Source of the DNA: a virus
DNA: 44,790 nt
Direction: 5' to 3' (one strand)
IMG/VR virus record: IMGVR_UViG_3300018056_000002
Coordinates: 1 to 44,790 of that record
The notes beneath the pieces were generated by a model. The model searched no databases. It worked only from the letters and a program-made list of their open reading frames with translations, and was not told the DNA's origin. Shown piece after piece: positions 29,272 through 31,988 of this stretch (within the stretch, counting starts at the first letter, position 1; each line of letters begins with the position of its first letter). Made by a program: the position numbers and the translations under genes.

Positions 29272-29399
29272 CACACCCGCACCCCGGTCACGAGCCAGTA
29301 GCCGACGAGCAGCCCGAGGACGACGGCGATCGTCACCAGGAACAGCCCCCACACGATCAGGGCGCCGGTCAGTTGCAGCGGGACAAGGACCCGCCTCAT
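29271..29399 (-). CDS. Small single-pass membrane protein (42 aa)
   Basis: Internal ATG of ORF 29271..29498 (offset 33 codons), with an ATGA overlap. MRRVLVPLQLTGALIVWGLFLVTIAVVLGLLVGYWLVTGVRV. Confidence 0.45.
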   Translation of the reverse strand: MRRVLVPLQLTGALIVWGLFLVTIAVVLGLLVGYWLVTGVRV

Positions 29400-29710
29400 G
29401 CCGCGCCCTTCTCCGGCACGAGCGCGACGGGAATCGGCAGGCGGCGCCGCGAGAAGCCGTACTGCCCCGACTCGAAGAGCCCCGCCGCGCGCCCGCACGC
29501 CGCCGGCGTCTCGTAGCCGAGCGAGTTGCCGATCGAGTCATCGACGCCGCGAACCCAGAAGCGCCGATCGATGACGGTGTAGAGGACCGTGTGCCGCGCG
29601 GCGAAGGGCTTGGTACAGACGACAAAGCGCCCGCTCGCGCTGACGGCCTGCACCGTGTAGGGGCGCGCTTCCTCCTGAAAGCGGAGCGTGTCGCCGACCT
29701 GCCAGCTCAC
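29396..29710 (-). CDS. Hypothetical protein (104 aa)
   Basis: ORF track. GTG start in a GTGA overlap with the methyltransferase stop. MSWQVGDTLRFQEEARPYTVQAVSASGRFVVCTKPFAARHTVLYTVIDRRFWVRG... Confidence 0.55.
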   Translation of the reverse strand: MSWQVGDTLRFQEEARPYTVQAVSASGRFVVCTKPFAARHTVLYTVIDRRFWVRGVDDSIGNSLGYETPAACGRAAGLFESGQYGFSRRRLPIPVALVPEKGAA

Positions 29711-30807
29711 GTCAGCCTCATGTCGAGATACGCTTCGATGAAGACTTGCGCGACTTGCGGGACGATGGCATTGCCGTAACCGCGCAGGCGTCCCACGCGG
29801 GCGGATACCCCATGAGCCACCGGGTATGTGCCGGGTTCAACTGGCCGCGCTTTCCCGTCCGCGCAGGGGAGCCAGTCGCATACCGACCAGTAACTTGATT
29901 CGTGAGTGATGGATGATGTGGACCGCCCGCCCCTTCGCAGTCCGCTGCCATCGGCGTCGCCCAACTCGCGAGCTGCGCCTGCAGGTTCAACGCGGTCACC
30001 GACGCGCCGAGTTGCTTCCCGCGTGCCTGCGCCTGCCGCTTGCGCGCGATCATCTGCTCCGCCGAGCCGCCCGCTTCGTCCGCGGTCGGCGTGTTCCAGC
30101 CGGCCAGGTTCGCCGCATCGGTCAACGTCAACCCCGGCGAGTGCGTCGCCGTTTTCTCGTAGCCGATCGAGGCCGACGAACACGCGTCCTGCCTCGTCGT
30201 CGTCGGCCAATGCGCCAGCATCGCGAAGTCCTGCAGGTTTGATCCGTGGCGCGTCTCGCCCATCGCGCGCTTCGCCTGCCCGTCGCGATGGGCATCGTGA
30301 ACCGTCGCGGTCGGCCACGAACCAGAGTCGCTGCCGGATGTGGAACGCGCCGACGCCCGCAGCCGGCAGACTGACCGCCCCGAGGGCGTACCCTTCCGGC
30401 TCCACGTCAGCGCAAACACGATCGAGCCATCCGTGCTTAATCGCTGCCTCAACCTGCTCACCAAAGACGACGCAAGGGCGGCACTCGCGCCAGAACTCGA
30501 ACCAGACAGGCCAAAGATCGCGCGGATCGTGCCCGCCAGCTTGGGCGCCAGCGCTCGAGAACGGCTGGCAGGGACAACTCCCGGTCCAGACTTCGCGATC
30601 ATCGGGCCAGCCGGCGAGCTTGAGCGCGTAGGCCCATCCGCCGATCCCGGCGAAGAAATGGCATTGGCCGAATCCTCGCACGTCGTCTGGCCGAACAAGT
30701 TCGATTGACCGTTCGTCGACTTCGCCATCAGGTATCTGCCCCGCCTTCATCAGTTCGCGCAGCCACGCCGCCGCGAACGGATCGACCTCGTTGTAATAGA
30801 CCGTCAC
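29707..30807 (-). CDS. Phage-type DNA (cytosine-5) methyltransferase (366 aa as a single frame; the central part is probably read in another frame, see findings)
   Basis: GTG 30807 in a GTGA overlap with the upstream gene. VTVYYNEVDPFAAAWLRELMKAGQIPDGEVDERSIELVRPDDVRGFGQCHFFAGIGGWAYALKLAGWPDDREVWTGSCPCQPFSSAG (PCQ motif IV), FGEQV (motif VI), FHIRQRLWFVA (motif VIII), C-terminal RLRGYGNAIVPQVAQVFIEAYL (motif X). Confidence 0.7.
   Translation of the reverse strand: MTVYYNEVDPFAAAWLRELMKAGQIPDGEVDERSIELVRPDDVRGFGQCHFFAGIGGWAYALKLAGWPDDREVWTGSCPCQPFSSAGAQAGGHDPRDLWPVWFEFWRECRPCVVFGEQVEAAIKHGWLDRVCADVEPEGYALGAVSLPAAGVGAFHIRQRLWFVADRDGSRCPSRRAGEARDGRDAPRIKPAGLRDAGALADDDEAGRVFVGLDRLRENGDALAGVDVDRCGEPGRLEHADRGRSGRLGGADDRAQAAGAGTREATRRVGDRVEPAGAARELGDADGSGLRRGGRSTSSITHESSYWSVCDWLPCADGKARPVEPGTYPVAHGVSARVGRLRGYGNAIVPQVAQVFIEAYLDMRLT
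29718..30728 (-). other. 336-codon open frame (+1 relative to the C5-MTase frame) with coding-like codon bias in its centre
   Basis: ORF-track entry 29718..30728. The central 132 codons (29922-30317) have third-position G+C of 116/132, against about 60% in the MTase frame. It encodes repeated W-x-T-(P/A/T) motifs (WPTAT, WPTTT, WNTPT, WATPM) and GQLNPAHTRWLMGYPPAWD, which resembles the methyltransferase LTPRE..LQGFP motif. Confidence 0.5.
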
Positions 30808-31064
30808 GCCGCGTGCCCCGTCGCCGGCGCCGGCATGAGCGTGTTGACCCGCCACACGCGGCGCGGAAACCCCTCAACTGACGCGTCGAGGCCGCAGACA
30901 ATCAGCCCGCGCGCCTGCAGGCGGAGCAGGGCGTTTCTCACGCCGTGCTCACTGATCGTCAAGGTCACGACGAGCTGACTCGCACTCTGCGGGCCGCGCT
31001 GCAGCCGCGCGTAGAGCAGGCGCTCAATTTGCCGGCCGCGTCTAGTCTGGGAATGGTTCTTCAT
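30804..31064 (-). CDS. Winged-helix (MarR/ArsR-like) DNA-binding protein (86 aa)
   Basis: ORF track. GGTGAGGTGA Shine-Dalgarno. ...LYARLQRGPQSASQLVVTLTISEHGVRNALLRLQARGLIVCG... Confidence 0.55.
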   Translation of the reverse strand: MKNHSQTRRGRQIERLLYARLQRGPQSASQLVVTLTISEHGVRNALLRLQARGLIVCGLDASVEGFPRRVWRVNTLMPAPATGHAA

Positions 31065-31073
31065 GTCGTCACC

Positions 31074-31988
31074 TCACCATCGCAAGCCCCGCTGCGCGGT
31101 CCGCGCGCTCGCGAGCGGCTGATAGCTCAGGTCGGTGCCGACCCACCGCCGCCCGAGGCGCTCGGCGACCGCGCCCACCGTGCCGGAGCCGAGGAACGGG
31201 TCGAGGACCAGGCCGCCGACGGGACACCCGGCGAGGATGCACGGCTCGACGAGCGCCTCCGGCATCGTCGCGAAGTGCGCGCCCGCGTAGGGCATGGTCG
31301 GGATCGTCCAGACCGATCGCTTGTTGCGCCCGCCTTGGCCGCCGTACGCAATCACACCGTTGCCCTGGCCGCCGCCTTTCACGTCGATGCCCGGCCGCGC
31401 CGAGTACAACTTTTTCATGATCCCCGCCGCGATCCGCCGCTTCGTGTCGCTCGGATTCTGCACACCGGCCGCTGCGTAGTCCTTCGTCCCCTCGCCGTCA
31501 TAGAACCCGCGGTCCGCCTCGCGGTCCTTGAGCGTCTGCTCGGCGTAAGGCTCGAAGATGGCCGGCGCGTCGTAGTGGTAGCGCTCGGACTTCGCGAGCA
31601 GGAACAGATACTCGTGCGCCCGCGTCGGCCGGTCCGTCACGCTCTCCGGCATCGGGTTCGGCTTCGACCAGATCGTGTCGGAGCGCAGATACCAGCCGTC
31701 CTCCTGGAGTGCGAACGCCACGCGCCACGGGATCCCGAGGAGGTCCTTCGGCTTGGTGTCGAGCACGAATCGCCTCCGACTGAACATCTGATGACCGATG
31801 CTCACCGCCGCAGTCGTCAACTGTTGCGTCTCTTTCCGACCGTCCCGCATCAATCCGCTCTTTGCAGTGCCGCCGCTGCCCTTCGTGGACGCAGCGTAGC
31901 TATCTCCCAAGTTCAGCCACACCACGCCATCGGCCGCGAGCACGCGCCGCACAATTCGGTCCGATCTGCGATCTTTTGTTATCAACAT
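31074..31988 (-). CDS. N6/N4-type (beta-class) DNA methyltransferase homologue lacking the N-terminal DPPY motif (304 aa)
   Basis: VVWLNLGDSY...DTIWSKPNPMPESVTDRPTRAHEYLFLLAKSERYHYD...RNKRSVWTIPTMPYAGAHFATMPEALVEPCILAGCPVGGLVLDPFLGSGTVGAVAERLGRRWVGTDL (AdoMet motif FxGxG at the C-terminus). No D/S-PP-Y/F motif occurs anywhere in the ORF, and the ORF opens only about 20 aa before the WxNxGD block. Confidence 0.65.
   Translation of the reverse strand: MLITKDRRSDRIVRRVLAADGVVWLNLGDSYAASTKGSGGTAKSGLMRDGRKETQQLTTAAVSIGHQMFSRRRFVLDTKPKDLLGIPWRVAFALQEDGWYLRSDTIWSKPNPMPESVTDRPTRAHEYLFLLAKSERYHYDAPAIFEPYAEQTLKDREADRGFYDGEGTKDYAAAGVQNPSDTKRRIAAGIMKKLYSARPGIDVKGGGQGNGVIAYGGQGGRNKRSVWTIPTMPYAGAHFATMPEALVEPCILAGCPVGGLVLDPFLGSGTVGAVAERLGRRWVGTDLSYQPLASARTAQRGLRW

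Follow-up and report, generated by a model that had tools for sequence, protein, structure and literature searches.

Introduction

M.EcoHK31I of Escherichia coli HK31 is a C5-cytosine methyltransferase (C5-MTase) made of two polypeptides, with the β chain encoded wholly inside the α gene in another reading frame and carrying motif IX, as described in published accounts of the enzyme (PMC2836561; PMC3404938). These accounts state that activity depends on both chains (PMC2836561; PMC3404938, citing Lee et al. 1995), that silent loss of the β start codons abolishes in vivo methylation, which β supplied in trans restores, and that the β N-terminus drives association with α, N-terminal truncation weakening the binding (PMC2836561; PMC3404938). 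M.AquI, another natural two-chain C5-MTase, is broken inside the variable region, its α chain holding motifs I–VIII and its β chain motifs IX–X (PMC3404938). Artificial N- and C-terminal fragments of M.HhaI, M.BspRI, M.BsuRI, and M.SssI complement each other into active enzyme (PMC3404938), which makes a non-covalent α/β arrangement mechanistically plausible. Here we describe a gene on the minus strand of a phage genome of 44,790 nucleotides and 67.7% G+C (IMG/VR record IMGVR_UViG_3300018056_000002, positions 1 to 44,790; this whole stretch is called the window), in which a C5-MTase reading frame, frame A, encloses a second open frame, frame B. The reading that we favour, with a probability of roughly 0.72, is that the locus encodes a heterodimeric C5-MTase of the M.EcoHK31I type, the β subunit being nested in the α gene and independently translated.

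Literature searches returned no description of the phage family as a nested or heterodimeric C5-MTase, and the relevant precedents were M.EcoHK31I and M.AquI only. The layout proves to have been described once before, for M.EcoHK31I, and to be common here to thousands of phage genes annotated as a single methylase. The architecture itself is known but obscure; the family scale, the measured selection on two frames, and a probable recognition region in β are new.

The frame A protein

The original prediction, made from the letters of the window, had described both frames as open and had quoted a series of motifs in each. Both frames were recovered on the minus strand and all the motifs lie where they had been placed. 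The elements of frame A are as follows.

29707–30807, minus strand: frame A open reading frame (ORF), α-like subunit, 366 amino acids plus stop, from the ORF list
30313–30807, minus strand: catalytic part with motifs I–VIII, from motif coordinates, AlphaFold2 (AF2) confidence, and the M.HhaI profile match
30637–30657, minus strand: motif I, FFAGIGG, binding S-adenosylmethionine (AdoMet), invariant in the A family
30565–30573, minus strand: motif IV, PCQ, with the catalytic cysteine, invariant in the A family
30451–30462, minus strand: motif VI, GEQV, the E-Q-V variant of ENV
30313–30339, minus strand: motif VIII, IRQRLWFVA, of the QxRxR type
29902–30297, minus strand: centre, residues 171–302, R/G/D/A-rich, predicted disordered, stop-free
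29710–29901, minus strand: C-terminal block of β-hairpin and motif X helix, nearly invariant columns in family alignments A1 and A3
29830–29880, minus strand: β-hairpin CDWLPCADGKARPVEPG, residues 311–323, predicted local distance difference test (pLDDT) 64–82
29749–29781, minus strand: motif X helix, GYGNAIVPQVA, of the GNxxxxP type, helix residues 350–365, pLDDT 88–93

Frame A is open over 29707–30855, the most upstream possible start being a GTG at 30855. The start is almost certainly the GTG at 30805–30807, which corresponds to the 'xxYYNE' position where every homologue starts and which shares bases with the stop codon of the preceding ORF. At that GTGA junction, the start codon overlaps the TGA (30804–30806) of an 86-residue ORF (30804–31064, minus strand), an overlap of a kind typical of translational coupling.

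On sequence grounds, frame A is the large domain of a C5-MTase of the PF00145 superfamily, with motifs I–VIII as well as X, and is predicted to carry out methyl transfer. It matches PF00145 (E=1.3e-11; score 44.9 bits, cutoff 22) and phrog_363 (E=1.8e-78), and the A-family profile aligns with M.HhaI (residues 75–174, E=1e-13). In an AF2 model built with a 61-sequence family alignment, residues 1–168 form a confident Rossmann-type domain (pLDDT 82–96) and residues 343–366 are again confident, with G345, N346, and I348 of motif X invariant in family alignment A3. Between these parts, residues 171–302 have pLDDT 37–45 and are without secondary structure, and residues 328–342, lying over the motif IX-like block of frame B, stay below 50. 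Foldseek returned M.HhaI and M.HaeIII as the best matches of the model (E about 1e-7, ~190 columns), covering the large domain only, and neither structure nor profile search found a solved structure from within the A family.

The same division is seen in the homologues. Across distant loci, amino-acid identity is 0.54–0.97 per block in the catalytic part and 0.09–0.28 in the centre, and the homologues, as annotated, prove to be frame-A proteins conserved at both ends, the centre between them being R/G/D/E-rich, variable in length, and not conserved. A folded variable region, the target recognition domain (TRD), and motif IX are absent between motifs VIII and X of the frame A chain, as judged by AF2, identity, and synonymous sites. 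Frame A alone is therefore an incomplete canonical C5-MTase.

The frame B protein

Frame B is shifted by +1 relative to frame A and lies wholly inside it, covering 92% of its length, with the following elements.

29718–30728, minus strand: frame B ORF, β-like subunit, 336 amino acids plus stop, from the ORF list
30739–30747, minus strand: Shine-Dalgarno (SD)-like stretch AAGGCGGGG, purine/G-rich, from the sequence
30726–30728, minus strand: start ATG, from the sequence
30351–30485, minus strand: conserved N-extension, overlapping frame A motifs VI–VIII, nearly invariant in alignment A2
30438–30485, minus strand: N-extension helix SAALASSLVSRLRQRL, family consensus SAALxSSLxSRLRxRL
30351–30428, minus strand: N-extension hairpin GSIVFALTWSRKGTPSGRSVCRLRAS, family consensus GSTLFxLTWKxxxTPSGRxxxxLRAS
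29952–30317, minus strand: central repeat region of four W-x-T-P/A/T units, each preceded by an L..a.LA segment
30306–30317, minus strand: repeat unit WPTA
30198–30209, minus strand: repeat unit WPTT
30087–30098, minus strand: repeat unit WNTP
29952–29963, minus strand: repeat unit WATP
29790–29846, minus strand: motif IX-like block GQLNPAHTRWLMGYPPAWD, directly upstream on the DNA of frame A motif X
29718–29720, minus strand: stop

Over nearly its whole length, frame B matches phrog_1008 (E=1.1e-28), a family distinct from that of frame A. Its 2,246 homologues are all 'hypothetical' and without a Pfam domain, and neither single sequences nor a profile gave an informative match in Pfam, NCBIfam, or the PDB sequences. 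Alignment A2 of the B family has four parts: an S-rich leader, the helix and hairpin, the repeat units, and a nearly invariant C-terminus. The repeat consensus is LxxxAxLAxWPTPxxxD, with 0–6 units per listed member and at least one in all but one of them. The C-terminal consensus is GSPAxTxKxGQLNPAHSRWLMGYPPxWDxCA. When B is modelled alone, the helix and hairpin of the N-extension are the only confident elements (pLDDT 70–87).

Within this C-terminus, the LNP..WLMGYP block looks like the LTPRE..LQGFP block of motif IX, a resemblance already suspected in the original prediction; the block is short and the statistical strength of the match modest. By hhalign, GQLNPAHTRWLMGYPPAWD aligns with the in-chain EFYEWLMGLPRGWVTD of gp83 of mycobacteriophage Chanagan (E=0.001), where the block stands in one chain with motifs I–VIII and is followed, at canonical spacing, by motif X (LLGNGVVPQQA). 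In the window, it sits on the DNA where motif IX belongs relative to X. With motifs I–VIII in A, a variable region and IX in B, and X in A, the canonical order is therefore laid out as A/B/A on the DNA, as two polypeptides.

The region of α between motifs VIII and X is unconstrained and disordered, and the recognition region most likely lies in β for that reason. The W-x-T-P repeat region of B, given its conservation and the state of the frame A centre, is the probable DNA-recognition, TRD-equivalent part.

Conservation of the layout and selection on both frames

Homologous genes were collected at 88 loci, of which 85 could be evaluated. The full two-frame layout is present in 78 of the 85, with G+C between 0.49 and 0.69. 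In these, the N- and C-terminal blocks of A share one uninterrupted frame, and B, at +1, opens ~80–120 nt downstream of where A begins and ends ahead of the A stop by a median of 26 nt. When frame B was compared by tblastn with the methylase genes of Salmonella phage epsilon15, EBPR podovirus 2, and Aeromonas phage AeroV_348, homology appeared in the +1 frame (E=4e-32 to 4e-45), which is open there for ~300–350 codons. Conversely, where metagenome gene callers chose the frame-B ORF, an intact frame A was found at −1, and B was together with A at every locus examined. Ralstonia phage phiRSP (L093) has the layout of the window. So do two phages whose annotations list both proteins: Paenibacillus phage Diva, with a gene G+C of 0.47, where gp50 was recorded as 'g49 internal gene' of gp49, and coliphage K1ind2, whose ORF29 ('C-specific methylase') encloses ORF28 ('Mte8-like protein'). 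The same layout across distant, independent loci, including sequenced isolates, excludes assembly indels.

Codon usage gives a first indication of which frame is read. In the centre (29922–30317), third-position G+C (GC3) is 116/132 (0.88) in frame B and 78/131 (0.60) in frame A, exactly the contrast from which the original prediction had proposed that B is read there, and the N-terminal part has 0.71 in A and 0.73 in B. A sliding profile puts G+C at ~0.9 at B position 3 over 30315–29926. Openness was assessed by fixing the protein and codon set of one frame, permuting synonymous codons, and scoring the other frame for stops. For the window alone the result is not decisive, the N-terminal part of B being open in 30% and the centre of A in 24% of trials. 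Across homologues, the chance of openness per locus is ~0.22 (B N-terminal part) and ~0.13 (A centre), and 78/85 loci are open; the zero observed stops are partly built in by the definition of the regions, so that the informative comparison is that of 78/85 with these expectations. In the third (+2) frame, the median number of stops per gene is 14. Double openness across the homologues exceeds chance.

Selection was measured as synonymous-codon identity at columns with identical residues, in ~2,900 locus pairs below 70% protein identity, relative to the expectation from the codon usage of each gene. For frame A, the ratio of observed to expected identity is 0.95–1.09 over residues 1–36, before the B ORF begins, and rises to 1.16–1.20 over residues 37–84, 1.37–1.47 over residues 85–108, and 1.82–2.00 over residues 109–156. 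It reaches 2.89 over the DNA for LNPAH.RWLMGY of B and returns to 1.07 after the B stop. For frame B, it is 1.8–3.4 over the catalytic domain of A, 1.06–1.30 in the W-x-T-P centre, and 1.6–2.5 over the C-terminal block of A. Purifying selection thus acts on both frames at the two ends, over some 110 dual-coding codons towards the N-terminus and some 55 towards the C-terminus. In the centre, B synonymous sites are free and A identity falls to 0.09–0.28; this part codes for B alone, and A is merely kept stop-free there. Alignment of homologues together with this test therefore finds both frames constrained at the ends and B alone in the centre, as the codon bias had led the original prediction to expect of the centre. 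A comparison of alternative-frame identity with synonymous shuffles (B frame 0.427, control +2 frame 0.398, shuffles ~0.31) could not discriminate, because the control +2 frame was elevated too, and the positional synonymous-site profiles were used instead.

Proposed organisation of the enzyme

In the heterodimeric arrangement that we favour, α would be translated from the GTG at 30807 and comprise the catalytic, AdoMet-binding domain (motifs I–VIII), a disordered linker of ~130 residues without sequence constraint, the small hairpin, and, to complete the large domain, the helix of motif X. β would be translated in the +1 frame from its own SD sequence and the ATG at 30728, and comprise the N-extension (helix and hairpin), the four W-x-T-P units, and motif IX. 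The two chains may associate non-covalently, by analogy with M.EcoHK31I, the N-extension of β mediating the binding to α; β would supply motif IX and most probably target recognition, that is, the small domain that α lacks. Physical association of the chains, a need for B in methylation, and a role of the repeats in DNA recognition are all inferred.

That a second protein is overprinted on the methyltransferase gene had been raised in the original prediction as an alternative, and this is what the data support, the second protein carrying the motif IX-like block and the probable recognition region. It could still be that B is an overprinted gene unrelated to methylation, with for example an anti-defence or regulatory role, and that A works as a methyltransferase by itself: viruses often carry overprinted accessory genes, and B has no match in Pfam or NCBIfam, is repeat-rich and predicted to be mostly non-globular, and varies in repeat number from 0 to 6. 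We consider this unlikely, though with some weight left to it, since A lacks motif IX and, from motif VIII to the hairpin, shows neither constraint nor a predicted fold. No part of B is more conserved than the motif IX-like block, which is positioned where IX belongs relative to X. Moreover, the B-type ORF of Gordonia phage GordDuk1 also carries motif X, and B always accompanies A in the loci examined.

Predicted translation of frame B

In 76 of 77 loci, the open frame of B has an ATG close to its beginning, and 45 of 77 have an SD-like motif at −15 to −6 of that start. Among the listed loci in which the B ATG lies at the '..IED' position of A (+100 to +109), all 17 have GGAG at ~−13 to −10, which in frame A belongs to an Arg codon (AGG or CGG) and a Ser codon (AGY); at that Arg column AGG makes up 26% of codons, against 8% overall. 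These signals support translation of B from its own start, independently of A. B is moreover constrained from about residue 85 of A onwards, well upstream of the frame junction at residue 165. No conserved slippery site was found at the frame junctions, an XXXYYYZ −1 heptamer occurring in the last 50 B codons of 6/77 loci and never at the junction, while +1 motifs at the first junction were not systematically scanned.

The original prediction had leaned towards a programmed double frameshift, in which ribosomes would move by +1 once past motif VIII and by −1 ahead of motif X, yielding a single A-B-A chain. Such a product would restore the canonical order of motifs I–VIII, variable region, IX, and X; the C-terminus of the spliced A-B-A protein aligns with M.HhaI 262–312 (phmmer), Chanagan has motifs I–VIII, IX, and X in one chain, and rare in-frame fusions exist in nature. 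The proposal is nevertheless very improbable, since B is open, has a conserved ATG and SD sequence, and is under purifying selection for ~110 codons upstream of the supposed shift site. Likewise, A is stop-free through the whole centre, which the frameshift model does not need, the classical heptamer is confined to the few loci given above, and the positions at which the frames join differ between lineages. This variation fits parts that assemble non-covalently better than a fixed frameshift mechanism, and the studied precedent, M.EcoHK31I, works as two separate chains (PMC2836561). The data fit A and B being two independently translated full-length proteins, with A-B-A not the main species and possibly a minor frameshift product. 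Single-frame A-B-A homologues, at first implied by the near-complete coverage of matches to the spliced chimera, were rejected, the alignments consisting of frame-A proteins bridged over a non-homologous centre.

The third suggestion of the original prediction, paired indel errors, and more generally artefact or pseudogene decay with the central openness of A a by-product of 68% G+C, would draw on the chance openness of 0.24–0.30 in shuffles of the window alone, on the richness of high-G+C DNA in spurious ORFs (such as the antisense one at 29906–30631), and on partial-pseudogene calls for some E. coli homologues by the Prokaryotic Genome Annotation Pipeline (PGAP), but is refuted by the layout in dozens of independent, distantly related loci (78/85, down to 49% G+C, including the isolates epsilon15, Diva, and K1ind2), by purifying selection in both frames, and by the top full-length matches to the A-B-A chimera being frame-A-type proteins, with in-frame fusions few and heterogeneous.

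Several observations weigh against the two-chain enzyme or at least temper it. That both proteins are made and interact is a prediction from sequence signals, selection, predicted structure, and the M.EcoHK31I analogy. The motif IX assignment is drawn from a short block: the hhalign probability is 21%, phmmer places the block on M.HhaI 272–289 (RKLHPRECARVMGYPDSY) without the stretch alone being significant, a Pfam search of 61 B-family members gave zero matches, and a B profile search of the PDB sequences returned nothing. AF2 did not form a compact fold for B alone, and confidence was low (pLDDT 59, predicted template modelling score 0.24). Frame A is broken or shifted in 7/85 loci, and in-frame A/B fusion proteins occur, though rarely (11/240, with heterogeneous junctions), so that the arrangement is not rigid and some fused products are possible. 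The natural A-B fusions are devoid of motif X. Finally, the likeness to M.EcoHK31I, namely a β nested in a different frame and carrying motif IX, was drawn from the published description of that enzyme, whose TRD is placed in α, whereas in the window the α centre is disordered and unconstrained and the conserved repeats lie in β.

Variants and distant relatives

The departures from the common layout are of several kinds, each of which may be a real variant or a sequencing error. In L040/L043 and L055, a 1-nt shift in the centre joins the N-extension of B to the C-terminus of A. In L067 and the P0086 group, the N-terminus of A reads into the motif IX of B, motif X being on a separate small ORF. 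In L059, L069, and L070, stops lie within the centre of A and B is intact. Proteins with variant arrangements are P0024, P0060, P0074, P0075, P0086, P0087, P0106, P0110, and P0116.

The matches in Mycobacterium and Gordonia phages are distant C5-MTases, similar to frame A over motifs IV–VIII only, and were used as outgroups. In GordDuk1 (L094, gp28 region), motif VIII is the last in the annotated methylase, and the repeat, IX, and X are all found in the +1 ORF; this B-like ORF has four homologues only, all stand-alone. In Chanagan (L092, gp83), the A frame includes IX and X, which leaves the N-extension and one LLPTP unit only to the +1 ORF. The GordDuk1, Chanagan, and phiRSP genes each have a conserved +1-frame ORF over motifs IV–VIII with an LLPTP or W.TP unit. 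Comparison of these sequences suggests that the dual-frame design is ancient and spans the C5-MTase superfamily.

Genome context

The genes around the locus, read in order along the minus strand, are an O-like replication initiator, an N4/N6 DNA methyltransferase, a small ORF, the A/B gene, another small ORF, the small terminase, the large terminase, and the portal. The second methyltransferase, of the N4/N6 type (31074–31988, minus strand; phrog_67, E=4e-44), lies just upstream of the A/B gene, and in E. coli prophages (L088, L089) an MT-A70 methyltransferase is directly upstream of the homologous A/B gene; the tandem pair may be a conserved module. The small flanking ORFs (29396–29710 and 30804–31064, both minus strand) are without a match in PHROG. 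An antisense ORF (29906–30631, plus strand, 241 amino acids) is open across the same DNA, as expected at 68% G+C. The phage collection contains no near-identical DNA relatives of the locus, and the exact A and B proteins are absent from the public protein collection.

Family scale and annotation

At E≤1e-3, a search with the B profile among 1.84 billion representatives found 26,167 representative clusters (50% identity), of which E≤1e-30 leaves 8,735, the match nearly always beginning at residue 1 of a stand-alone predicted protein. Neither Pfam nor NCBIfam includes the B family, and it is also missing from the PGAP records checked. For the E. coli prophages among these, PGAP annotates frame A only, sometimes as two partial pseudogenes, presumably because the centre of frame A resembles nothing. 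An example is L088 (E. coli NZ_CP041110.1), where CI675_RS25670 and CI675_RS25665 are the N- and C-terminal pieces of a 'DNA cytosine methyltransferase' pseudogene and the nested B ORF is unannotated.

We regard it as an even bet that the phage and prophage C5-MTases of this kind (epsilon15-like, K1-type, Burkholderia, Rhodobacter, Paenibacillus) form a very large, ancient family of obligate α/β enzymes whose recognition subunit is encoded in the +1 frame across ~90% of the catalytic gene. If so, these would be among the longest dual-coding genes under two-frame purifying selection in bacterial viruses. The combination of ~165 codons under purifying selection in both frames with ~130 codons over which one frame merely stays open recurs in very divergent genomes and makes a well-controlled natural system for the sharing of DNA by two proteins. 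For annotation, it means that 'DNA cytosine methyltransferase' genes of phages and prophages, in their thousands, are read as one protein with a junk centre, the partner being 'hypothetical' or absent, and that the annotated ORF, expressed alone to find its specificity, would probably give an inactive or non-specific enzyme. The findings also suggest that a heterodimeric C5-MTase design known from one restriction-modification enzyme is common in phages, and that recognition may reside in a subunit that can be separated, a point of interest for the engineering of split methyltransferases.

Comparison with known systems

Full nesting of one gene in another is familiar from Rz and Rz1 of phage lambda, Rz1 lying in the +1 frame wholly inside Rz and the products working as a complex. 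Those proteins are spanins and Rz1 is short (~60 codons), whereas the nested ORF of the window is ~1 kb long and would complete an enzyme. Two frames also contribute to the products of programmed-frameshift genes such as the tail chaperone G/GT, dnaX, and prfB (PMC5009743). Such genes have a conserved slippery or shift site and need the alternative frame only downstream of it, neither of which was found in the window gene.

Closer to the locus are the C5-MTases that work in pieces. The fragment-complementation enzymes are artificial splits of single chains without overlapping coding, unlike the window gene. M.AquI shares with it a natural split in or around the variable region, its chains reconstituting one enzyme; the window gene differs in that motif X stays with α, and the GordDuk1 relative comes closer to the M.AquI split.

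M.EcoHK31I remains the nearest described system. In both, the β N-terminus matters, through association with α in M.EcoHK31I and as the object of purifying selection in the B frame of the window. M.EcoHK31I is part of a restriction-modification system, whereas the window gene is an orphan phage methylase beside a second methylase. In the original paper, the M.EcoHK31I β chain is reportedly much shorter than α; in the window, β spans 92% of α. If M.EcoHK31I belongs to the same family, the textbook assignment of its TRD to α would need revision.

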